From a phage: a stretch of 64,000 nucleotides of DNA. The notes under the pieces are model-generated. The model had not been told where the DNA came from. It saw only the letters and a program-made list of their open reading frames with translations, and searched no databases. Both the position numbers and the translations under genes were made by a program. The stretch is from assembly GCA_020773975.1 (NCBI GenBank), contig GCA_020773975.1_3638.1; one strand, 5' to 3'. Of this stretch, positions 6,842-49,913 are shown piece by piece. Each line of letters opens with the position of its first letter. Position 1 is the first letter of the stretch.

Positions 6842-7537
6842 CTTGCCCTTCGTGCCTATAACGGTGGAACTCCCTATGGGAAAATACCGTGCCACAGAAT
6901 ATGGAAATATAAACTCTGGGTGTAACGACTATCTCCGATGAGTGTAGGAGAGTAGAATCACAAGCGATTGGTGATCCAAACGGCACGCCAAGGATGGAAG
7001 ATATAGTCTGTTCCACATGGAAACATGTGGCGGGTGTTTTAGCACACCGCCTCAGTGTAGCGAACTGAGGGGACAATAAGTTGCAATATACCTTTATAGG
7101 TTTCGATGAGGGTAGAACAGTGTGCTCTCTATAAACCCCTTTAATTGACGGGTAACTCTTTATACATATCACCACTAAGTAGGTATGGTAACATATTTAT
7201 GGTCAACGGTAATGACGTTGAGTATAGTAACAGTGTGAATGTTTAGACAATCCGCAGCGAAGCATCCCTACGGGATGAACGTTCAACGACTATCGCTTAC
7301 GGGCGTTAGGGCCAAGCGGTGAGGGAAACCTCCGGTTGATTATCAACCGCCGAAACAGGGGGGTGTGTAATAACACACAAGATATAGTCTGATCTGCATG
7401 GTGACATGCAGCAGCACGTAGTGGTGCGGGATAAGAGTAGCGATCTTATCTGAACAAAAACGACACAATTCACATGGTCACAGATAGATTATCTGATATC
7501 TCGTCTACGTTCAAACTCTAAATATCCGAGCAGGATG
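6830..7537 (+). mobile_element. group I intron-like intervening sequence(s) in terminase, no ORF
   Basis: Conserved core elements: P-like AATTGACGGG (7143), Q AATCCGCAGC (7250), R GTTCAACGACTATC (7282), S AAGATATAGTCTGATC (7379); a second R/S-like pair at about 6926 and 7003. Confidence 0.55.
7381..7430 (+). repeat. 50-nt intron core block (S element to P9 region), copy 1
   Basis: GATATAGTCTGATCTGCATGGTGACATGCAGCAGCACGTAGTGGTGCGGG; second copy at 8674-8723 with 2 mismatches. Confidence 0.7.
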
Positions 7538-14956: not shown

Positions 14957-16234
14957 ATGACAGCAACTACAGGTGTTGGCGGGTTAATTTATGGTCGTGC
15001 ATTAGTTGACCAGAAAACAGGAAAGAAAATAAATTTTGATGAGTTGGGTGGTGGGAATATCCCAGAAGATATAACAGAACTTATTGCATCTAAAGCCCCA
15101 ATAGAAAGCCCTTCATTTACAGGGAAACCTCAAGCACCAACACCATCGGATGATGCGGTAGGGAAGGAAATAACTAATGTAGAGTATGTTAAAAATCTAA
15201 TTGCAAAACTAGTTAACTCAGCACCTGAGACATTGGACACTCTCAATGAGTTGGCAAAAGCATTAGGTGATGACCCCAATTTTGCGACAACGGTCACTAA
15301 TGAACTGGCAGGTAAACAGCCGCTGAACGACGTGCTGACGGCAATCAGTGAACTGAAGCAACGGGCAGATAATCTTCTGTGCTTTAATCAGGACGGGAAT
15401 GCTTCACTGTCCCCGCTGTCAGAAAAAGCCCGGTCACTGCTGGCACTGGACACGACAGAAGCCATGCGCACGGAGCTTGAACTGAAGGCTGCCGCGACAA
15501 TGGATGTTCAGAGCGATATCCGTGACCGCACAGAAGGGCGTCTGGCCCTGCCGGGAGCATATGGTTACGGGCGTCTGTTCGCGTACGATGAGCACCTTTA
15601 CGTGAACGACGAACCCCAGGGCAGGAACTGGATAAAGAGTGCCACGCCGGGACGGTATGCGCTTACTTTTCGCGATGTCTCCTGGCTGCTTCCCGGCGTG
15701 AAAACATTTTCCGGCATTATTGATGTACTCCAGTCACCATTCACCATCAGTGATGATGAGCGTGGTGCCAAAAACATGACACTGGTCTGTTATAACCAGC
15801 GTGGTGATGGTGAAAACAGCATTCATATAGTCAGCTACAGTGTTTCCGGTGATGAGCTGAGCTTCACATCGTCCACTGTTGTCTCAGACGGTCTTTCACT
15901 GGCCCGGTTGATGTCGGTGACGACAGGAGAGGGGCCGTCATCCTGGTACAGGTATCCGGATGTTGGCGCGCCAGTTCTGGCTGTGTATCAGGGAACAGCG
16001 GCCGGAGATAACTCAGTCAAAATAGGCCTGGGAGATACGGTGCCGGGGTCACGACTTGGTCCGGTGAGTATTACCTGTACATTCAGTCAGTCTGGCATAT
16101 CGGAGTCCACACCGTCTGTAAACACAGGAGGTGCAGGTGCATACAGTTTTCCGGGGCGTTATCAGGCGCTGTCCGGGTGGAAGCAGGGAGGGTCAGCCCG
16201 TGGCTGTATCTGCCTGTTCGTGCGCATTGAGTAA
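14957..16234 (+). CDS. tail fibre protein, mosaic (phage-like N-terminus, GC-rich C-terminal receptor-binding region)
   Basis: Conserved fibre motif SPSFTGKPQAPTPSDD...LAKALGDDPNFATT; composition switches to GC-rich at about 15300. Confidence 0.6.
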   Translation: MTATTGVGGLIYGRALVDQKTGKKINFDELGGGNIPEDITELIASKAPIESPSFTGKPQAPTPSDDAVGKEITNVEYVKNLIAKLVNSAPETLDTLNELAKALGDDPNFATTVTNELAGKQPLNDVLTAISELKQRADNLLCFNQDGNASLSPLSEKARSLLALDTTEAMRTELELKAAATMDVQSDIRDRTEGRLALPGAYGYGRLFAYDEHLYVNDEPQGRNWIKSATPGRYALTFRDVSWLLPGVKTFSGIIDVLQSPFTISDDERGAKNMTLVCYNQRGDGENSIHIVSYSVSGDELSFTSSTVVSDGLSLARLMSVTTGEGPSSWYRYPDVGAPVLAVYQGTAAGDNSVKIGLGDTVPGSRLGPVSITCTFSQSGISESTPSVNTGGAGAYSFPGRYQALSGWKQGGSARGCICLFVRIE

Positions 16235-16249
16235 CGGGGTAAATAAGGC

Positions 16250-16825
16250 ATGAAAATCAGAGCGGTAAAAGGCATCAGAAACGCACATTATCTTGAAAAT
16301 GGTGCGGTTGACTGCGAGGTGTTATTTGAAGGCGAAACGGAATTCGTTCCGTATACCGCCATGCGTGACGACAGCGCCCGGACAGGGCGGTATATCTGGC
16401 GGGAGCTGCAAAGCGGCAAATGGGGTGAAGTCGCGCCGTTTACCGTCACGCCTGAACGTATCGCTGCGGCAAAAGCAGCCAAAAAACAGGAAATCGAGGC
16501 ATGGCAAACAGAGCAGGAAGCGCTGGCGTTCACGTTCGAATGGAACGGTCGAACGTGGAATGGAGGTGCGTCCTCAGTATCCCGTCTCACGCCAGCGGTG
16601 ATGACGGCAAAGTCAGAGAGTCGCGAGGAGACAGAGTGGAGTGATGCGGAAAACAGGCGGGTGAAGCTGTCGTTGCAGAAACTGGAAGAGTTGCTTACAG
16701 CGATGGTGCAGGAGCAGGTTATTCGCAACGATGAGATTTATCGCCGGCAGCGGGAGATGAAGGATGAACTGAATAACCTGGAGGATTTAAGCTCAATCAG
16801 AGCGATGACGATTAGCAGCAGTTAG
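16250..16825 (+). CDS. tail fibre assembly protein (Tfa-like chaperone)
   Basis: GC-rich; lambda Tfa-like segments (FTFEWNGRTWNGG, C-terminal DEIYRRQREMKDELNNLEDLSSI); directly downstream of the fibre gene. Confidence 0.55.
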   Translation: MKIRAVKGIRNAHYLENGAVDCEVLFEGETEFVPYTAMRDDSARTGRYIWRELQSGKWGEVAPFTVTPERIAAAKAAKKQEIEAWQTEQEALAFTFEWNGRTWNGGASSVSRLTPAVMTAKSESREETEWSDAENRRVKLSLQKLEELLTAMVQEQVIRNDEIYRRQREMKDELNNLEDLSSIRAMTISSS

Positions 16826-40550: not shown

Positions 40551-40742
40551 TCAAGATGATTTTTTGTCTTTTTCTTGGAGAAAAGACAGGACAAATGCTG
40601 TAACCGCTATAATCAAAGGGGGCATGACAACAATTGCCCATGGTAGGTATAGAGGGGCAAGAACTAACCACCAAGACCAGTCTATAATCTCACACAACTT
40701 CAACGCTATGAAGAGAATGCTTAACGCAGATAAAAATCTCAT
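40551..40742 (-). CDS. small membrane protein (63 aa)
   Basis: ORF track; two hydrophobic helices. Confidence 0.3.
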   Translation of the reverse strand: MRFLSALSILFIALKLCEIIDWSWWLVLAPLYLPWAIVVMPPLIIAVTAFVLSFLQEKDKKSS

Positions 40743-40749
40743 AAAAACC

Positions 40750-41031
40750 TCAAGAGAAAAACTCTTCTATAACTTCCCAAACCCTTTCCGAACCCCCTCC
40801 TGAAAGGATACTCCAAATAACCATATCTTGATAGCCTTTCTTACACACATCCACTTGTCGAAATGCTTTGTGGAAACCCTCTGGACAACCATATTCCACA
40901 GGGAGCATATCCACATTATCTTCGAAATATTTAAGTAGCAATTCCTCTTCCAAAGAGGGGTTGTTGCGAAGTTTCTCTTTGAGATTCTCAACAAGTTGTG
41001 CACCTGTTAACTTTTTGTTTGTCATGTCCAA
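40750..41031 (-). CDS. hypothetical protein (93 aa)
   Basis: ORF track. Confidence 0.3.
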   Translation of the reverse strand: MDMTNKKLTGAQLVENLKEKLRNNPSLEEELLLKYFEDNVDMLPVEYGCPEGFHKAFRQVDVCKKGYQDMVIWSILSGGGSERVWEVIEEFFS

Positions 41032-41378
41032 TCTCCATTTTTAATTTCCAGTATATCTACGCTCTCTGTTGGTACAAAGCCAACAACAGGCTTCATACAT
41101 TTCTCTTTTACATTATCGAAGACATACATTTCATCCAATGCTTTTTGTGTTGTGCACGATTCCCAGTTTTTTGTGTACTCTTTGTAGCCATCCTCGTAAA
41201 GGAGGAAGTAGTTAATAGTTGTTGCCCCAAGAATAACGAACATAACAAAAGAGACAACAACGTGTTTCCATGTTCCTTTATACGATAAAATGAAAGCCCA
41301 AATAGAACACAACACATAAAACGATAAAGCAGGGAACCAGTTATTATGCACCTGTACCCACTCTAAAAAAGACATCAT
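41022..41378 (-). CDS. membrane protein (118 aa)
   Basis: ORF track; hydrophobic helices. Confidence 0.3.
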   Translation of the reverse strand: MMSFLEWVQVHNNWFPALSFYVLCSIWAFILSYKGTWKHVVVSFVMFVILGATTINYFLLYEDGYKEYTKNWESCTTQKALDEMYVFDNVKEKCMKPVVGFVPTESVDILEIKNGDWT

Positions 41379-41382
41379 GTTT

Positions 41383-41676
41383 CTATCCTTTATTTATATA
41401 TCTCTTCCAGTCAGAAACAATGTTAGATGCAAGCTGGTAAGTTCCGTTGGCATGTCCATCAGTTTTTGCTGCCGCTTTTACATATGGTAGGGATTGTTCG
41501 AGAGCATCCACAATCAAGGGACACATTGCAATAGCCAAAGCTAGATTCCCGTTTTCAGCGGTACAGATTGGGGAGTAGCTCTCCATTCCGTTTCCGTATT
41601 TCTCAAGACTACCTTTAACAATAACTTGGTCTTCACCAAACAAATCCTCATGATGTTCCCACATTTCTTCGATCAT
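41383..41676 (-). CDS. hypothetical protein (97 aa)
   Basis: ORF track. Confidence 0.3.
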   Translation of the reverse strand: MIEEMWEHHEDLFGEDQVIVKGSLEKYGNGMESYSPICTAENGNLALAIAMCPLIVDALEQSLPYVKAAAKTDGHANGTYQLASNIVSDWKRYINKG

Positions 41677-41898
41677 CTAGTTGTTCCTCAATTTTGCCAT
41701 TGCATTATTAAATATTTTTTCGAGTTTCCTGTATTTAATCTTTTGTTTTATGCTTAACTTTTTTCTCTCTCCGGCAACCATTGCGCCATAATACTTAAAT
41801 AAAACAACACGTCTATTGCTTACTTTTAATACTTGGGATTCCCTTTTCCTTGGCAGGAGAAGGATTTTAGCTTTGCGATTTTTCAACTTTACCTCCAA
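41677..41898 (-). CDS. hypothetical basic protein (73 aa)
   Basis: ORF track; Lys/Arg-rich. Confidence 0.3.
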   Translation of the reverse strand: MEVKLKNRKAKILLLPRKRESQVLKVSNRRVVLFKYYGAMVAGERKKLSIKQKIKYRKLEKIFNNAMAKLRNN

Positions 41899-42310
41899 TC
41901 ATCTTATCCAGTTTTCGCCACATATCCCACACACCACCATTACCTATTGTGTTTTTCGATGGAGTCACACAGGCGATAAATTCCAGATCAGTGCCCTTAT
42001 TCATAAGATATTCAGATACCAACCCTGAAGCGATCAGTTTTATATTTTCAAGGTCTTCTTCAAGCTCCTTAATACGAGCCTGTGCTTTTTCAATTTCTTC
42101 CTTATGTCTTTTGTATTCTTGAAAAGCGTGCCAAGATTGTCCTTTATGAACACTTTCACAAATGGCCTCTACTTGCTCTTTTGAGAGCACAGTGAGTGGT
42201 TGAGATGGGAAAATCATTATTTGTCCACTATCCCAATCGAATCCTGCATGTATAGATTGAACATCAACCGAAGGTGTTGCTCCAACAGTACCTGGGGAAT
42301 GAATAACCAT
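41867..42310 (-). CDS. hypothetical protein (147 aa)
   Basis: ORF track; C-terminal coiled-coil-like region. Confidence 0.35.
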   Translation of the reverse strand: MVIHSPGTVGATPSVDVQSIHAGFDWDSGQIMIFPSQPLTVLSKEQVEAICESVHKGQSWHAFQEYKRHKEEIEKAQARIKELEEDLENIKLIASGLVSEYLMNKGTDLEFIACVTPSKNTIGNGGVWDMWRKLDKMIGGKVEKSQS

Positions 42311-42432
42311 CGTTAATTTTAATCAAAGGGAAGTCAGTAATCAAGACATGATTTAAACCAACGGCAGTAACAAGGTATTTCTGCTCTGGATCCCAAGACA
42401 ATTTAGACTTGTACAAACAACCTTGTCTAATT

Positions 42433-43068
42433 TTAAAATCTTCCACACACCCACCCTTCACAGTTGTGATCACGACATCCTTCAAAATCATATGGGCTGT
42501 ACTGCCAGGTTATTTTTCCGCAGTGCGGACAATTCCAGCGCACTTTCCCGCTTCGTGACCTCTTCCTTCTGTTCTGCTTTTTCAACCAATCAGGCATGAC
42601 CAAACCTGCGCCCTGAACCATTGTTCTGCGGTTAAAGTTATTGATATTGAACGTCCGGCGCTTTGCTGCATCAGCAATGGAAAATGGCAACCAAACTATT
42701 CCTGGTTCGTTTTTGTTGGCGACGCTAAAGATGGTCGCTTTACTGAAGTCATCTGTTGGCAATCCACCGTGTTGAAGCCAGTAAACATCGTTGCCGTTCC
42801 AGCTACCTTTTTTGTAGGCCACATACGCAGTGCAATCTGACTCAATCAGGCTTTCTGTAGGGATGTACTGGCAATCAACGTGCCACACAGCCATTGCATC
42901 CACACTATCAGCGCAAACAGGTTGATCGATATCTCGACCACAATTCCAGGCTTTTTGGGCTTCTTCCAGCGTGTAAACATGAGCGCGATCGATATCATAA
43001 CTGTAACCATTGCCGTTATGGCAATGGAATGAGGCGTTATTACCCACAGTTTCACGCAAGCACATCAT
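42433..43068 (-). CDS. hypothetical protein with C-terminal CxxC zinc ribbon (GC-rich island)
   Basis: ORF track 42433..43119 trimmed to internal Met; C-terminal WNCPHCGKITW...CEGWVCGRF; enterobacterial-like composition. Confidence 0.35.
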   Translation of the reverse strand: MMCLRETVGNNASFHCHNGNGYSYDIDRAHVYTLEEAQKAWNCGRDIDQPVCADSVDAMAVWHVDCQYIPTESLIESDCTAYVAYKKGSWNGNDVYWLQHGGLPTDDFSKATIFSVANKNEPGIVWLPFSIADAAKRRTFNINNFNRRTMVQGAGLVMPDWLKKQNRRKRSRSGKVRWNCPHCGKITWQYSPYDFEGCRDHNCEGWVCGRF

Positions 43069-43082
43069 GTAAAAACGGTTGC

Positions 43083-43532
43083 TCACTGGTTGCCTCCGTT
43101 GCGAAGCTGTTCCGCACAATGCCGCAGGGCATCCGTAGCATCTTTAAGCGTAACCATCTCGTCATCATCCAGTCCTGCTCCCCTCGCATCCATGACAAAC
43201 GCTGCGCAAAGGTCGTTAAACACTTCAGCCCGTATTTCAGCCAGAAAAGCATCGGTGGCTGGGGTTTTGATATCATAAATTTCAGGAAGAATCTCTTCCC
43301 ATGTGACGATATCACCATTCAAATGCCAATCGGCAATCCCACTGGAGTTATCAGCAACATCGTGGACAGCTTTAATCGCTCTGTGCAGGGCTATATTCTC
43401 AGCAACCAATTCTGCACAACGAGTCTCCAGTTCTGAGATTTTCTTTTTATTATGGTATCCCTTTTCTAAAAGAGTTGCGCATTTACTACCTAGGCGTTTG
43501 ATTTCATTGGTGTACACTGATTTCTCAGTCAT
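43083..43532 (-). CDS. hypothetical protein, lambdoid-prophage-like (149 aa)
   Basis: ORF track; GC-rich; N-terminal coiled coil. Confidence 0.35.
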   Translation of the reverse strand: MTEKSVYTNEIKRLGSKCATLLEKGYHNKKKISELETRCAELVAENIALHRAIKAVHDVADNSSGIADWHLNGDIVTWEEILPEIYDIKTPATDAFLAEIRAEVFNDLCAAFVMDARGAGLDDDEMVTLKDATDALRHCAEQLRNGGNQ

Positions 43533-43752
43533 GGTTGGCTACCCCTTTCTTCAACAACTTGATGTTAGTTTTAAGTTCTGCAATTTGACACATAGCGTCA
43601 ATATTTGTGTCTTCTAACTTCTTAATTTCATCAAGAAGTGTCAATACAACCTCCGGTGTTACCATACTACGATAATCCGTCACCTCTTGATAAGTACCGC
43701 CATCTCTTGCTATCTCTGCTAACTTACGTAATTCTTGGTAGTCAATTTTCAT
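43525..43752 (-). CDS. hypothetical protein (75 aa)
   Basis: ORF track; GC-rich island. Confidence 0.3.
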   Translation of the reverse strand: MKIDYQELRKLAEIARDGGTYQEVTDYRSMVTPEVVLTLLDEIKKLEDTNIDAMCQIAELKTNIKLLKKGVANHD

Positions 43753-44146
43753 AACTTGATAAGTCCTGCGTTGTTTTATTTACTACATCATATGCCTCTT
43801 TGAGCACCCAGTCAACAGCATCTTTCCATGCTCCGGTTTCGACTGGTGGATTCTCACGCTTAACCTGTTCATAGAAGCGCACTGCTTTAATCAATCCTTC
43901 TAAGGTTACAGGTGTGGTGTATAACGCCTGAATTTCGTAGTTTGGTCTGTCGTTACAATCCTCTTTTGTCGGTACATATTTCCAGTCACCAACCCACGGC
44001 TCCCCCTGAGAGTCCGTAACGCCTTTTTTCACGTAGCGATATCGCCATGCAACTGGTTGTTGGGTTGCTGCTTTAAGGCTTGGTGACGAAGATGGAAGCG
44101 CAACATTAGTCATTTCCGAGATGACAGGTTGATAACCATTGCTCAT
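43742..44146 (-). CDS. hypothetical protein (134 aa)
   Basis: ORF track; GC-rich island. Confidence 0.3.
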   Translation of the reverse strand: MSNGYQPVISEMTNVALPSSSPSLKAATQQPVAWRYRYVKKGVTDSQGEPWVGDWKYVPTKEDCNDRPNYEIQALYTTPVTLEGLIKAVRFYEQVKRENPPVETGAWKDAVDWVLKEAYDVVNKTTQDLSSYEN

Positions 44147-44321
44147 TTAAATCTCCTCCTGCCTCATATGCCACTTGTAACCAATACATAAATGTTTCAA
44201 TAGAAACACAACCACAATCCACATCAATCTGGTCATGTTGTTGTTCCAACCACTGCTGAAAACGTGATTTTTGAGTATCATTCTCTGGTTGTTCTTTTAT
44301 CATTATCACCCCCATCGGCAA
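44106..44321 (-). CDS. hypothetical protein (71 aa)
   Basis: ORF track; GC-rich island. Confidence 0.25.
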   Translation of the reverse strand: MPMGVIMIKEQPENDTQKSRFQQWLEQQHDQIDVDCGCVSIETFMYWLQVAYEAGGDLNEQWLSTCHLGND

Positions 44322-44385
44322 ACTGAGTACACTGCAAAGGCTACAGCCATTACAACCCCTACCGTTGTGAATGCTTCAGGCCAAG

Positions 44386-45048
44386 TCATTGATTCATCCC
44401 CTTCTTTTTGAGCATAGCGGCACGACAGGCATTCCAGCCATCAACATAATCAAACGTATTGCTATCGTCTGGCTCGATTTCATCTGGTACTGCCAATGTC
44501 GGCTGGGCGGCAGCATTGGCAAAGGCTGCACGCAACCCTGTCTTAATCTCCTCTACCTCATCAGCACCTAGCGATGAATCTGACAGTGCATGATGGAATG
44601 CGTATGCCATGTCGTCGTTTACTGTTATCGGTTCCACTTTCTTTACTGTAAGTGTTGGCGGTACATGATACAACGGGATTACACGACGCGGGTCTGTACC
44701 TTTACCTGGTGGGTACGGCATTATCCAGCCTAAACCAATCTGATCAACATCCCGCAACTCCTCTTCGTCCGTCCATCCCACCGGTTCTGCTCTCAACTCC
44801 ACCTGCGCATTAGGGGAGGTGTAGAGTGGGATTCCTTTCCTCCCACCAGAAAATTCATTGCGAGCGTTATACTCACGACCATCTGCGTCCTCACACATCC
44901 ATGCTACAGGCTCTGTTTCCAGCACTGCCAGAGCAATTCGAGCCAGTTCTTGCGCTTCTTCTGCTGGCAGTACAACGTTGCCACCAAGTCCGTATGTTTC
45001 GCGCCATTGCTTGATTGTCAGCAGACGTTCTTTGGTAATAGTGGTCAT
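44386..45048 (-). CDS. hypothetical protein, prophage-like (220 aa)
   Basis: ORF track; GC-rich; acidic. Confidence 0.35.
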   Translation of the reverse strand: MTTITKERLLTIKQWRETYGLGGNVVLPAEEAQELARIALAVLETEPVAWMCEDADGREYNARNEFSGGRKGIPLYTSPNAQVELRAEPVGWTDEEELRDVDQIGLGWIMPYPPGKGTDPRRVIPLYHVPPTLTVKKVEPITVNDDMAYAFHHALSDSSLGADEVEEIKTGLRAAFANAAAQPTLAVPDEIEPDDSNTFDYVDGWNACRAAMLKKKGMNQ

Positions 45049-45050
45049 AA

Positions 45051-45311
45051 CTATTTCACCTTAATCTCAACATTTCTCACATCTAGCTCTACGGGGAGTT
45101 CTGACTTTCCGGTCAGTGCTAATGCAAGATTTTCTGGGGTAACAAGGACAGTTATTGTTTTTCCTCTCTCCAGACGAATAGCCATTCTTATCTTGTCATC
45201 ATCACCTGTGTTAGGTCGAGTAATTGATATTTGTCCGTTCATATATTTATCCTTTGTTATTAATATGCCAATCCTTAACAAATAGTTATGTGAATGAAAG
45301 AAAGCAACCAA
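45051..45311 (-). CDS. hypothetical small protein
   Basis: ORF track; true start may be the internal Met (MNGQISITRP). Confidence 0.3.
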   Translation of the reverse strand: MVAFFHSHNYLLRIGILITKDKYMNGQISITRPNTGDDDKIRMAIRLERGKTITVLVTPENLALALTGKSELPVELDVRNVEIKVK

Positions 45312-45642
45312 AGAATTGACTCAATAGCTGCCCAACCAATAACTGCACAAACAACACCAAGAAACAAGAAAAAACCAGTACTGGGCAAATTATTGAACAT
45401 CCTCACTCCCTTTTTTGTTATTAACACGCTGTTGGAGGTCTTTTAGATGGTCAATATTAGAGCGAACATGCTTAAGTAGCTGCTCTTTTGTAAAGGTTTT
45501 CATGATTCCCCCTCATTGAACAGAATATCTCGTAATACAGGGACGCTTTTATCCATACTTGCTTTAAATTGTTTACTGTTCGCACTTGCCCATGTATACA
45601 CAACCATTTTAGCAGCGTCGCTCAAAGTTTCATACTTATTTC

Positions 45643-45984
45643 TTAAAGCTCCTTGAACAAATCTATGTTGTCTTGTACCCATTGCAAGCGTTCTTTGTTC
45701 TCATGGCAAGCCTTTTTAAACATTTCTCTACTATAGGGACTTGTCTGGTTGAAAGGCAATCTTTTGTCTAGCCCCGCCTTTTCGAAATCATCATGCAGCA
45801 TGTCTAGTAGGTCATCTCTGTAGCAGGACAAATGATTCACATTGCACCAATCAAATAAATTAGCGCACAAACCACAGTCACGAGAGAAAATATCAGAGTC
45901 TGGTGCTCCTCTTTTTACCCAAGCATCGTAAGAAAGGTAAAAACTTTGTAGTAAGACATGTAGCTTTGTAATATCAAAATTCAT
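45643..45984 (-). CDS. hypothetical protein (113 aa)
   Basis: ORF track. Confidence 0.3.
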   Translation of the reverse strand: MNFDITKLHVLLQSFYLSYDAWVKRGAPDSDIFSRDCGLCANLFDWCNVNHLSCYRDDLLDMLHDDFEKAGLDKRLPFNQTSPYSREMFKKACHENKERLQWVQDNIDLFKEL

Positions 45985-46442
45985 TGTTCGAAATCTCCAT
46001 TACGAAGTTGTTCTGCATAAAGAAGGGCTTGCTTTCCCGCATAGATGATGCTTTCTTCTTGCTCCTGCTCTCCGATACGGATTGTGAGCATACCGTACAT
46101 ATGAACACCTTGAGCCATCATCTCTGTAGAAAACTTCTGTGTGGCTTCCAAACCAGGCATTAAAAGTGATTGATCTGCTGGGGTATATGCATCAGAGATA
46201 TCAGATTGTTCCCCATCAAAAACATAACAACTCTCACGAATGAACTTCTTTAGGAGTGCATTTTCTGATGCTACGTCAATGAACATACCCTCCAGTTTCT
46301 TGTAGTCATCGTAAGAAACCATGTCTGTACAGAAGGAACTCCCTTGTACAGGGGGTGATAAATAGTCACTTGGTATTGCATGTATCTTTACATTTCTCAT
46401 AGAAATTCTCCACAAAGTGTCAGGTAGCGAAATGATACACAA
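45981..46442 (-). CDS. hypothetical protein (153 aa)
   Basis: ORF track; overlapping stop/start with neighbour. Confidence 0.3.
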   Translation of the reverse strand: MCIISLPDTLWRISMRNVKIHAIPSDYLSPPVQGSSFCTDMVSYDDYKKLEGMFIDVASENALLKKFIRESCYVFDGEQSDISDAYTPADQSLLMPGLEATQKFSTEMMAQGVHMYGMLTIRIGEQEQEESIIYAGKQALLYAEQLRNGDFEQ

Positions 46443-46466: not shown

Positions 46467-46838
46467 TTAATTAGCCAATTCAGCATCCAACGACATTATA
46501 TACTCAGGTAGCTTTCGGATGTTCTCATACAGCACAATCTCTCCGTGTGTCAATGGCCTGATTTCTTTATCCACACCAACATTATTATGGTAATCCCAAT
46601 CGGCATCAACATGGACGAAGACCAGTGTTCCTCTATTGCCAGCCTTAGCGTCCTTTCTTACGATAATCTCTCCGTCTATTGAAGGTAGGCATCTTTTGAA
46701 GAATTTGTTTAAAAGTTTTTGTTGAATTGCTTCTGCCAAGATCATTTTGTCTTGGCTATCTACGATTCTTTTGATTTCAGAGTCGTTTACTTCAACATCA
46801 ATAAGTTGTGTTGTTGTCTGGGTTCCTTTTACTTTCAT
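46467..46838 (-). CDS. hypothetical protein (123 aa)
   Basis: ORF track. Confidence 0.3.
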   Translation of the reverse strand: MKVKGTQTTTQLIDVEVNDSEIKRIVDSQDKMILAEAIQQKLLNKFFKRCLPSIDGEIIVRKDAKAGNRGTLVFVHVDADWDYHNNVGVDKEIRPLTHGEIVLYENIRKLPEYIMSLDAELAN

Positions 46839-46883
46839 GCCACCTCTTCTTTTAAAAAGGTGCTTTTCAGCACCTTACCATTT

Positions 46884-47183
46884 TTAGTGAGAATCTGCCC
46901 ATGTGTATCCACAAAGATATTCTCCTGTAATTAAAACTGGAAGCCCCATTATCTTAGATGCTTTTTCTACACATTTTGTTGCAAGCTCTCCTACTGGGCA
47001 ATGCAGTATCCTGTATTTCCCATACACATCAGGTTCAACAATAACTCTACCCGCTTTCACATAATGTCCGTCGAAACGATGACCTTTTTCAAGCATCATA
47101 TCTACATAGCTTTGTGCCGCCTCTAAGTTAGAATGCTCCGTTATTGATTTAAATCTTTCCGGTACTTGTACCTGTATCTCATC
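46884..47183 (-). CDS. DNA polymerase (family A), exon 2 (motif C to C-terminus)
   Basis: Begins DEIQVQV (motif C HDE completed by exon 1 His) and ends ...GYTWADSH like Pol I-type C-termini. Confidence 0.65.
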   Translation of the reverse strand, partial: DEIQVQVPERFKSITEHSNLEAAQSYVDMMLEKGHRFDGHYVKAGRVIVEPDVYGKYRILHCPVGELATKCVEKASKIMGLPVLITGEYLCGYTWADSH

Positions 47184-47492
47184 CATCAGTTCAGAGAGTT
47201 CGTTACGCTCTCCCGCACCATTACGTGCATAGCCACAAGATTTCTCCTGTGGGTCGGACTATCTCATCCTCCTGATATTAAGGAGGCCTCCCGTTTCGAC
47301 CGCACTTGCTGGCCTACTCTACTCGCTTTCACATTACTAGTGTGCTTTCGATAGTCTCTGAACGTTCATCCCATAGGGATGCTTCGCTGCGGATTAGCAT
47401 ATTGAACTTTTGCTACTTTTACGTATAAAAGCCAGCTTAGCCTTCCCGTCAATTAGAGAGGTTTTCGACATGCATTACTGCATGAAGCCACA
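47184..47492 (-). mobile_element. group I intron (about 309 nt, no ORF) in the DNA polymerase gene
   Basis: On coding strand: exon ends CCAT, GTGG guide-like sequence 10 nt in, P AATTGACGGGAA, Q AATCCGCAGC, R GTTCAGAGACTATC, S GAGATAGTCC, terminal G before GATGAG; splicing restores VIYYH-DEIQV. Confidence 0.6.
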
Positions 47493-49913
47493 ATGTTATT
47501 TATGGTAGTAGATAACCCTCCTGACACCTTGGTCGTACCATCCCCATTTCACCAATTCCCAATGGAACAGGACTCCCATGAGGTCAAACAATGAAGCACC
47601 ACCGTTTTGTTGGTAAGCATTCAGCAGAGAATGTTTAGAACGAGTCCAAATTTTACGCCCGTCCATGCCTGGAATATAGCGTCTCCCATTTGCCTCCCAG
47701 AATTTTTCCAACCACTCCCTACGCATTTTCAACCCGAAGTTACTATCCCAGAATGCATCTATTACAGCCTGTGCTCTATTAAGGGGGATACCCAGCATTG
47801 CGGCTATCTTAGGAGCTTGTGCTCCATACATAATTCCATACGTAACCCCCTTTCCTCCAGAGCGTGTTACCTCCTTTCCTGCTGCTATTGTGTATGCTCT
47901 TGCGTTTCGTTCATGGGCATCCTCTTCCATCATGATACGTAAATACTCACCACCATCAAACTCAAAAGCCCCTGCCGCTGCAATCATACCTTCTAAGTTA
48001 GATCCATCACAACCCATCAGGTAGTAGCCTTCAGGGACTGTCCAAAGACCCCGCATTTCTTTTCCCAACAAAACCTTCGGATCAGGCTTGGGCATGTTTG
48101 CGCAAACAGTATGCTTGCACCTGCCCGTGTTAGTGATTCCAGAAAAACGTGCTGGAAGTTTTCCGTCAATGTCTAAACGAGGGTGATTTAATAACCCTGT
48201 ATCCGTCTTATCCTCATCCATTGGGTCTAAAACAGATCGCCTGTTACGAAGTGATAGCCACTTAACAATCTGTTTTGCCATATGCACATCAATTTTCTCC
48301 AAATTTGGACACAGATGCCCAAAATTATCTTTTAATTGAGGAGATGTCGGTAACTGGCGTGCTTTACGCCGAAATTTCTTAAATATCTCTGAATAACCCC
48401 TTTCAGATGCATGGCGATGGTCAAACTTACGCTCTGAAATGTTGAATTTCTCATCTGAATCATTAAGGTAGTCAAGAATAAGAGATTTATACTCAGACTC
48501 TGCCAACTCTTCTATGTACTTCTTAACTAGTACATCAATTTCAGAATCTTCACGAGTCTTTTTAAATTGATCCTTAGTAACATCTTTTACGCGCCACAGT
48601 GTAGGTTTCCAACCAGCATCTTTGATCAAATATTTTTTAATATCATCCTGATTAGAGATTTTCATTGGAACCATTAAATCTGGCATTTTTCTGTTTCGAA
48701 GGTCTTCTTTAGCCTTCTCTAGAAGATCCGGCGGTAAAGGTTCGAGTGTGTTCTCTTTGGTTCGCTGGGAACGAATGAAATCACCGTATAAAGCCGGATC
48801 TTCAATGCCATTCTGGATGCAATATCTCTCCCCTGCTGCACTTACATCCCCATTGCTCTTAAAAGCTGTTTTTGGTGGAGCTTTAAACTCCAGAGCTTCC
48901 CTGTTAACAGGATAGCCAAGTTTATATTCCAACCAATTCCACCCATGATGAGATATATTACCCGCTGTGTCAAAAGGGTTAGCTGGGAATTTTGGTTGTT
49001 GAGATTTCGTCATCTCTTTTTTTGGAAGAAGTGGTTCTACCTCTTCTTCAATTTCTCGCATCATCTTATCTATGCGATCTCTTAATTTTTCTGCCTCCTC
49101 CCGATTAAAGTATACGCCTTGTATTTCTTGCTCTATCATCAAATAGTCTGTGAGCATTCTCCTACGTAATGCATTTTTCCAATTAATCTGGTGCATCCCG
49201 TGAGGTTTATCAGTGTACATAAACTGCTTGTCATCAGGCCATCGCGTACCATTTGACTCATCAATAAGAGCTTTCCACACAAGTTCGTTAATGATAACGT
49301 CTTCCCACACACGGTTTACATATTCCCACAATGGCTGATTACGCCAATCATCAATCTGCACTTTCTTGTTTGCTACACGATAACCCCATGCCAATAAGCC
49401 GTGTGGCCCAACCCTGTCACGTTTTCCTGTTACAGGGTTCAATACAGAATCTGGGCAGCCATTAGGCAATGGGCGATCTGGGTAAAGAACACGACTCATT
49501 GAAAGAGTGTCGTAAAGATTTACCTGTTTATTACCTATCGTCCCCATACATTTTAGGTCTTTGAACATGTCATATTCAATCCCAGAAAGTTTTTTCCACA
49601 GACGTAAATCATAGCCGAACAGGTTATGTATTGCTATCCCTCTTGGCTCGGTCTGCAACCAAGAGTAAAAATCATCATAAGAAAGGATACGTAAATTAAC
49701 ACCTTCTTTGCTGCGTGCAAAATTAACTGCACTCTGGTATTCCTTGTGAGCAGGATCGAGAAACAACACCCAGTTATTTACAGCATATTCTTTAAAAAGT
49801 GTGCAGTGATATTTAGTTGCCTCTTCTAATAATCCGTCAGCTTCGTTATCTCCGACAAAAAGCCCTTTCATACTCCTCCTATTCAAGATGGGCTTGACTG
49901 TATCGTCGCCCAT
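47493..49913 (-). CDS. DNA polymerase (family A), exon 1
   Basis: Pol I-like motif B RSGGKGVTYGIMYG and pre-motif C NAYQQNGGASLFDLMGVLF...RRVIYYH; ORF track stop lies within the intron. Confidence 0.7.

Follow-up and report, generated by a model that had tools for sequence, protein, structure and literature searches.

The Ea22 protein of lambda and of Shiga toxin (Stx) phages is among the earliest proteins made and forms a tetrameric coiled coil, with C-terminal domains (CTDs) that are dimeric, acidic, and highly variable (PMC10834534, PMC7093339). It favors lysogeny and host survival via unknown partners and shifts the lysis-lysogeny balance (PMC10834534, PMC7093339). The exo-xis region has also been tied to inhibition of host replication and to cell cycle effects (PMC10834534, PMC7093339), and in lambda this region is dispensable (PMC10834534). 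Here, we describe genes of this type in a virulent phage. They occupy an island of raised guanine-plus-cytosine (GC) content at positions 42433-45048 of a 64,000-nucleotide (nt) stretch of phage DNA (GenBank assembly GCA_020773975.1, contig GCA_020773975.1_3638.1), which in its full length we call the window. The original prediction, made from the sequence alone, was that this island had been captured from a host prophage. Taken together, our data make it highly probable that the island forms the core, recently exchanged, of a hypervariable slot, that its ea genes came from the temperate gene pool in several captures, and that the phage uses them.

Genes are documented to move between temperate phages and large virulent ones (Moura de Sousa et al. 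2021, PMC8136500). We placed the source phage by megablast of the region and its surroundings. It belongs to Avunavirus (Vequintavirinae), the rV5-like myoviruses, and is a virulent coliphage. It shares 96% nt identity over 89% of 12 kb with Escherichia phage Av-05 and about 94% with the group of phages 18-1-2, 19-1-2, 24-2-1, and TH18; DNA-level alignment to the remaining Vequintavirinae was confined to the DNA polymerase gene. Av-05 is described as strongly lytic on E. coli O157:H7 and Salmonella (PMC4463512). The island genes go unmentioned in the Av-05 genome note and in a Vequintavirinae paper. Five Avunavirus assemblies were compared: this window, Av-05, 18-1-2 (for its group), Logan ERR7123791, and ENA ERZ27258095. 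Outside Avunavirus, the syntenic locus was examined in SSE121 (Seunavirus) and JEP1 (Vequintavirus).

Homology and origin of the island

The island has a GC content of 46.1% compared to 40.5% for the whole window, and Av-05 stands at 40.0%. Only 3.3% of the same-length segments of the window reach 46.1%, all of them here or in another island at about 13.4-16.6 kb, which confirms the proposed compositional shift. The rise is patchy, with 47-52% GC at 42450-43350, 43800-44100, and 44250-45050 and a dip to 37-38% at 43350-43800. GC at third codon positions (GC3) is 0.32-0.49 in the six island genes compared to 0.28-0.41 in neighboring backbone genes. Because this rise is modest and much of the GC excess is carried by codon positions 1 and 2, the claim of enterobacterial-like codon usage is only weakly borne out. 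The interval is exactly filled by six intact minus-strand open reading frames (ORFs), as had been predicted, from the stop codon of a zinc-ribbon gene at 42433 to the start of a 220-amino-acid (aa) gene at 45048. Five of the six proteins are acidic (isoelectric point [pI], 4.2-5.1).

Segments of the island are 85-98% identical at the nt level to Stx, lambdoid, P22-like, and P1-like temperate phages and prophages. At least one island piece was present in 2211 of the 5426 complete E. coli genomes surveyed, on chromosomes and on P1-like plasmids. The temperate homologues sit in the early-left operon between recombination genes (recT/erf) and xis, i.e., in the “ea” or exo-xis region. The 42451-43102 segment is 93-97% identical to Stx1a-, Stx2a-, and Stx2c-converting phages, IME10 (hkaG), P1, P7, SJ46, and the P22-like phage 611R6. 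The 43794-44396 segment shares about 88% identity with lambdoid phages. By blastn, the 44905-45256 segment is 82-92% identical to Kapi1, mEp460, JLK-2012, and E. coli prophages, and homology of the temperate type ends at about 45256. This direct nucleotide homology supports the idea that an AT-rich phage captured early accessory genes of the lambdoid-prophage type.

Using local blastn maps and end alignment, we located the left recombination junction at 42451. The DNA to its right is of the temperate type, and the sequence to its left is Avunavirus specific (shared by this window, Av-05, and contigs L011 and L012). The junction alters the last ~5 codons of the zinc-ribbon gene, and the ORF stays open. 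The boundaries first drawn at 42433 and 45048 therefore move, the left one to 42451 and the right one to about 45256, which takes in a further gene at 45051-45242.

When all ORFs from 40.5 to 47.2 kb were compared by tblastn to the syntenic regions of SSE121 and JEP1, only the flanking genes at 40551-41378 and 46467-47186 were conserved. Since these Vequintavirinae genes are the only conserved flanks and the 5 kb between them is missing from these two other genera, we define 41383-46442 (minus strand) as a variable accessory slot, a definition that also draws on segment replacements between Avunavirus genomes. The slot sits downstream of an intron-split DNA polymerase gene. By sequence comparison, the DNA from 42451 to about 45256 appears to be its recently exchanged core.

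The same genes are thus not a fixture of the locus in all related phages. This bears on the possibility that they are ancestral Vequintavirinae genes exported to temperate phages, or that both share an old ancestry, which we consider very improbable. An Ea22/Eae-like gene of backbone composition does exist in the slot at 45981-46442. In addition, identity among Avunavirus genomes is similar for the island (89-93%) and the backbone (92-98%), which implies that most of the block predates the split of the known Avunavirus lineages. However, the syntenic locus holds no homologues in Seunavirus or Vequintavirus, and the GC content lies above that of the backbone. The families are widespread in temperate elements, with member counts from the hundreds into the thousands among prophages and plasmids of Enterobacterales, and occur in one virulent lineage only. 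Finally, an ancient divergence could not leave identities to temperate copies as high as about 97% for the copy in this window and 98.7% for that of 18-1-2. We infer from where the families occur, from the excess of GC, and from the absence of the genes in sister genera that transfer ran from temperate to virulent phages. The high identity to unrelated backbones, together with that absence and a GC content unlike the backbone, marks the transfer as recent.

Identity this high to resident DNA raises the question of whether host-prophage reads were mis-joined into a lytic phage contig. About 40% of complete E. coli genomes contain DNA that is 93-98% identical to the segments, and induced prophage DNA is common in phage lysates. 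Nevertheless, such a chimera or contamination is extremely improbable, as the block and its flanking junctions occur at the same locus in five independent assemblies, which effectively refutes an assembly artifact. Moreover, the 42451 junction lies inside an ORF that stays open, and the full-length 220-aa protein occurs only in Avunavirus-type contigs.

The contents of the block differ between the five assemblies by segment replacement. The Ea22-like stretch at 43080-43627 differs in each Avunavirus genome compared, Av-05 and ERR7123791 carry a 628-bp insert near 42310, and 18-1-2 is without 41053-42450. Phage 18-1-2 also retains the temperate flank downstream of its zinc-ribbon gene, and this gene is 98.1-98.7% identical to temperate copies and only 96.7% identical to the copy in this window. 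These two observations imply that the Avunavirus copies have been re-seeded or converted more than once. A search for one donor that carries the entire block in this order came up empty: no E. coli genome covers more than 37% of the query, and in the phage collection, coverage of at least 80% was seen only in Avunavirus records. In temperate phages the gene order is zinc-ribbon, Ea22, small gene, and DUF551; here the zinc-ribbon gene comes last. By these comparisons, the island is a mosaic, assembled and re-edited by several events. The temperate origin in the proposal of prophage capture therefore stands, and a single colinear capture does not.

No direct or inverted repeats were found flanking the island. 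Promoter- and terminator-like sites are no commoner than in shuffled sequences, and none brackets the island. On both grounds we rejected a transposon and a moron with its own promoter and terminator, and we favor recombination over a mobile element. The genes probably entered more than once, when the phage infected E. coli and recombined with prophages or phage-plasmids resident there. Later segment replacements often break at gene boundaries or at a short “(L)EAEPVAW” linker.

Zinc-ribbon, Ea22-like, and DUF551 genes also occur in the variable region of P1-like phage-plasmids (pRM10386-1, P7, and SJ46), where the ea genes adjoin hot, which encodes a theta subunit homologue, and humD. With these elements included, the ea gene pool is common to at least four unrelated phage backbones.

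Proteins encoded in the slot

The last gene of the island in transcription order (42433-43086, minus strand) encodes a basic zinc-ribbon protein of 217 aa belonging to the HK620 hkaG/phrog_2457 family. We corrected its start from TTG at 43119 to GTG at 43086, which has a GGAGG 6 nt upstream and, in the sequence GTGA, overlaps the stop codon of the gene before it. Temperate phages show this arrangement as well. The match to phrog_2457 is full length (E = 4e-116, profile positions 1-218 of 222). The protein begins with an alpha/beta domain of about 150 aa, continues with a linker rich in Arg and Lys, and ends in a CPxCG...C...C ribbon. The predicted CxxC zinc ribbon at the C terminus is indeed present (CPHCG...C...C) and is conserved in 35 homologues, in which C182, C185, and C200 are invariant and C205 is nearly so. 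None of the 224 homologues has a Pfam domain. A profile search of the PDB with the family alignment (A1) gave as best match the zinc ribbon of eL43, an rRNA-binding protein, at an E value of 0.04, which is below significance. A confident structure model was obtained for the protein, and it had no match in the solved or viral predicted (BFVD) structure libraries searched. Given the weak resemblance to the eL43 ribbon and the basic linker, our best guess is that the protein binds nucleic acid. A literature search on “hkaG” found no relevant paper.

Upstream lies an Ea22-like unit that is split into two ORFs overlapping by 8 nt, 43525-43752 and 43083-43532, both on the minus strand. The first encodes a 75-aa homologue of the lambda Ea22 N terminus (phrog_368/250), with 30% identity to Ea22 residues 3-76 over 74 aa (BLASTP, E = 1e-6). 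The matching region of lambda Ea22 comprises the N-terminal segment and the start of the coiled coil. The gene has a low GC content (37.7%). Its match to Pfam Ead_Ea22 (PF13935), at 19.3 bits, falls under the gathering cutoff of 27, and the 149-, 134-, and 153-aa ORFs of the slot have no PF13935 match at all. The second ORF, the C-terminal half of the unit, encodes an acidic 149-aa protein (phrog_492/368/614) with a coiled-coil segment and a CTD of the HK97 gp37/P22 Eae type. Its weak matches to bZIP and Shugoshin at residues 29-57, together with the five acidic proteins, agree with the predicted presence of acidic coiled-coil proteins. By tblastn, it matches temperate phages and Avunavirus only (52% to HK97 gp37 and 44% to Stx-phage “ead/Ea22-like” proteins), and it has no similarity to the lambda Ea22 CTD. 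This gene is the most variable stretch between Avunavirus genomes and is replaced in Av-05, L011, and L012. The split is kept in Av-05, 18-1-2, and L012, so the single polypeptide of Ead/Ea22 is not formed. At the same position, contig L011 encodes an unsplit 170-aa protein that bears PF13935.

Next upstream, a 134-aa protein (43742-44146, minus strand; phrog_660, E = 5e-36) has 1215 homologues, chiefly E. coli prophage proteins, and is 82% identical at the aa level to its counterpart in lambdoid phage 606R7. From its “(E/Q)PVAW” linker on, its body is also the CTD of E. coli Ead/Ea22-like proteins: P0341 and P0342 carry both PF13935 and a domain of the 134-aa type, with 83% identity. The following gene (44106-44303, minus strand; phrog_924, E = 7.5e-11) encodes a very acidic 65-aa protein (pI, ~4.2). 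This length assumes ATG at 44303 as the start, and the mechanical ORF extends to TTG at 44321. The protein is 65% identical at the aa level to the product of a P1-like plasmid gene and is identical or near identical in the other Avunavirus genomes.

The first gene of the flagged interval (44386-45048, minus strand) encodes an acidic EaA-type modular protein of 220 aa, which we characterized by homologue search and alignment A2. Its parts are an N-terminal leader with ...LETEPVAW at its end, a pair of PVxW...PLY inserts, and a ~75-aa conserved domain (DDMAYAFHHALSD...GWNACRAAML). The leader is common to 6899 homologues, and the full-length architecture was seen only in Avunavirus-type contigs. 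There was no Pfam match to DUF551 (PF04448), as the protein ends before the DUF551 block in alignment A2. Its AlphaFold2 model was poor (predicted local distance difference test [pLDDT] score, 49); hence, no fold search was made on this protein. Immediately beyond the flagged interval, the 45051-45242 gene (minus strand; phrog_1222, E = 2e-35) encodes a 63-aa protein. In Kapi1 and an E. coli prophage, its counterpart is the syntenic partner of the leader of the EaA/DUF551 gene, and its product is 74-75% identical at the aa level to the L002 and Kapi1 copies, which lie immediately upstream of the DUF551 genes there. The blastn match that covers this gene (44905-45256) stands at 85%. The 220-aa gene thus shares with EaA/DUF551 genes the leader, the middle domain, and the upstream phrog_1222 gene.

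The linker ...(L)EAEPVAW/QPVAW occurs at 44899-44913 and 44045-44059 and is often closed by ...PLY. In thousands of E. coli prophage proteins (DUF551, DUF550, and Ea22-like), the PVAW linker joins interchangeable leaders and bodies. In the 220-aa protein, homology breaks off at residues 48-50 (EPVAW), and in the 134-aa protein, it does so at residue 26, just before QPVAW. The EaA protein of 18-1-2 is shorter and is without exactly the stretch between the two PVxW repeats (alignment A2). From these positions, the EPVAW-type linker may act as a recombination or domain-boundary linker for a modular protein pool.

The slot is not purely lambdoid, as its 147-aa and 113-aa ORFs are related mainly to proteins of virulent phages. 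The 147-aa ORF (41867-42310, minus strand) is a chimeric small protein. Its N-terminal 85 residues occur in virulent ~72-kb Pseudomonas phages, Klebsiella phage LASTA, and others (45-63% aa identity), and the rest is a helical segment of the GreA-N/coiled-coil type that also matches the Ea22-like phrog_368. At the other end of the slot, the 45981-46442 gene (minus strand) encodes a 153-aa Eae/Ea22-like protein (phrog_492/10746/368), 41% identical at the aa level to P22 Eae and 51% identical to Stx-phage ead/Ea22-like proteins. Since its composition matches that of the backbone (GC, 0.41; GC3, 0.36), the gene is probably an older capture from the same gene pool that has been compositionally ameliorated.

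Long ORFs also run antisense to the island genes. Phage 18-1-2 and an E. coli prophage both have internal stops in the DNA that is homologous to the plus-strand ORF at 42894-43436. The ratio of nonsynonymous to synonymous substitution rates (dN/dS) in the minus-strand frames of the island genes is 0.05-0.35. We therefore rejected coding on the antisense strand. In agreement with the original prediction, the long plus-strand ORFs are by-products. No Rfam families were found inside the island.

Selection and possible function

All island ORFs are intact in five lytic genomes, and they are tightly packed with coupled start and stop codons. Among Avunavirus copies only, the dN/dS of the 220-aa gene is 0.05-0.30. 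Because the ORFs are intact in five genomes and dN/dS values are this low, the island genes appear to be under purifying selection and hence to be used by the lytic phage. The alternative is that they are neutral hitchhikers, selfish or junk cargo that is kept because the slot tolerates insertions and because prophage homology re-seeds it. Consistent with this, every family is listed as being of “unknown function,” the Ea22-like unit is in two pieces, DUF551 is lacking, close relatives differ in content, and the exo-xis region of lambda is dispensable (PMC10834534). Intact ORFs, the Avunavirus dN/dS of 0.05-0.30, and tight packing with coupled codons all argue against it. Capsid-limited lytic phages also lose useless DNA quickly. 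On balance, we regard neutral carriage as unlikely.

Several points nevertheless weigh against recent capture of functional ea genes from the temperate pool. One is the lack of a single donor noted above. Where purifying selection was measured against temperate copies, it may in part be selection that acts in the temperate phages and not in the lytic one, and the split of the Ea22-like unit could be decay. No island protein had a significant family match in Pfam, NCBIfam, or PADLOC, and the matches in PHROGs are to families of “unknown function” only. PDB sequence searches with four proteins and the A1 profile, fold searches, and BFVD returned nothing informative. Ea22 is known to promote lysogeny, an effect with no evident meaning for a phage that is obligately lytic. 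Finally, since no promoter or terminator signal beats chance, the timing of transcription is assumed from position and orientation alone.

With these points in mind, our model for the captured genes is as follows. The ea genes would be co-transcribed with replication genes, and their products would act early, without being essential, to modulate the infected cell or the phages that reside in it. The acidic, predicted-oligomeric coiled-coil proteins would be scaffolds that present swappable CTDs to targets in the host or in co-resident phages, and the basic zinc-ribbon protein would bind nucleic acid alongside them. Because ea proteins are kept under selection outside lysogeny, the core activity of the exo-xis ea proteins is probably general manipulation of the host cell rather than a function specific to the lysis-lysogeny decision.

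A more specialized role would be that of dedicated anti-defense or anti-prophage cargo, which neutralizes prophage exclusion or defense or controls lambdoid and Stx prophages. Variable early accessory slots are typical sites at which counter-defense genes cluster. The homologues are the earliest lambdoid genes and affect prophage induction and host survival (PMC7093339, PMC10834534), and the O157:H7 host of Av-05 carries Stx prophages with the same genes. However, the island proteins match none of the catalogued defense and counter-defense families in PADLOC and show no similarity to known defense or anti-defense proteins, and their temperate counterparts have no reported anti-defense activity. 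We find such a dedicated function quite unlikely. Decidedly unlikely, in our view, is that the earliest genes of prophages were domesticated against, or for handling, resident prophages, with the tracts of 0.15-0.65 kb and 92-98% identity serving as recombination landing pads. Were this so, one possibility is that the genes check lambdoid and Stx prophages or mimic their early signals, so that prophage-encoded exclusion stays untriggered.

Other features of the window and comparison with known systems

The second GC-rich island of the window lies at 14957-16825 (GC rich at about 15100-16600) and, at 54% compared to 40.5%, is stronger than the one at 42433-45048. It covers the distal part of a tail-fiber gene (425 aa) and a tail-fiber-assembly-like gene (191 aa). 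Alignment to Av-05 and 18-1-2 is limited to 24-30% of its length, and a piece of 340 nt shares about 80% identity with the lambdoid side tail fiber gene stf of Rac-type prophages. In sequence, this island has the look of a receptor-binding module that came in by exchange with the pool of temperate phages.

The polymerase gene next to the slot is interrupted by a group I intron at 47236-47511 (minus strand; Rfam RF00028, 81 bits), which accounts for a local GC bump at 47100-47550. The two pieces of the gene are the ORF at 47496-49913 (805 aa) and the ORF at 46884-47186 (100 aa, C-terminal part). The intron here is without a homing-endonuclease ORF; Av-05 has HNH endonuclease genes at that place. 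A further group I intron (7086-7411, plus strand; RF00028, 68 bits) lies within a block of plus-strand genes. A cluster of 11 tRNAs is found at 263-2689 on the plus strand (Tyr, Gly, Gln, two Ser, Lys, Asn, Pro, Leu, Phe, and Met), and the genome note of Av-05 counts 9 tRNAs (PMC4463512).

Temperate-to-virulent gene flow is a known process, and we consider the slot a well-supported new instance of it that involves known but uncharacterized families. It offers a clean, datable example of repeated exchange between a lytic, broad-host-range lineage and lambdoid/Stx, P22-like, and P1-like elements, with breakpoints that can be placed at the borders of genes and at a conserved linker of a few residues. 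This lytic lineage has been put forward as a biocontrol agent against E. coli O157:H7. Its 650-bp tracts of 96-98% identity to Stx-converting phages make homologous recombination with toxin phages possible in the target hosts, which bears on the safety assessment of therapeutic phages. A lytic carrier also provides a simpler, lysogeny-free genetic background for finding the targets of exo-xis proteins, and the 217-aa zinc-ribbon protein is a tractable candidate for structural and functional work.

Compared to the exo-xis region of lambda and Stx phages, the resemblance lies in the 149-, 134-, and 153-aa ORFs, which fall in PHROGs or match proteins annotated as ead/Ea22-like or Eae (Stx, HK97, and P22 types). 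As described for Ea22 (PMC10834534, PMC7093339), the proteins are acidic, a coiled-coil segment is present, and the C-terminal part is the most variable. The locus differs from Ea22 of lambda and Stx phages in that the carrier is a virulent myovirus, the unit is split, and the CTD is unrelated to that of lambda Ea22.

The zinc-ribbon protein is closest to its known relatives, with full-length aa identity of 96-97% to HK620 hkaG/phrog_2457 members, the same GTG start, and conserved zinc ligands. Coupling to an upstream Ea22-type gene is common to both settings, and the DNA matches the upf87-89 region of P7. Unlike hkaG in temperate phages, which precedes the other ea genes, the gene here is last in transcription order, and its last ~5 codons are replaced at the 42451 junction. 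The leader of the 220-aa protein has 85% aa identity over 49 residues to P22 EaA and DUF551 proteins (e.g., E. coli YfdS), and its middle DDMAYAFHHALSD... domain occurs in hundreds of DUF551 proteins. Those prophage proteins carry a C-terminal DUF551, whereas the 220-aa protein does not.

As in the documented passage of genes between temperate phages and virulent ones (PMC8136500), near-identical genes are found between unrelated repertoires and lifestyles, and the recipient is a large virulent phage. That survey found metabolic, packaging, and virion genes to be favored, whereas the cargo of this slot is early accessory or regulatory. The tail-fiber-tip island of the same phage fits the virion-gene pattern of that survey.

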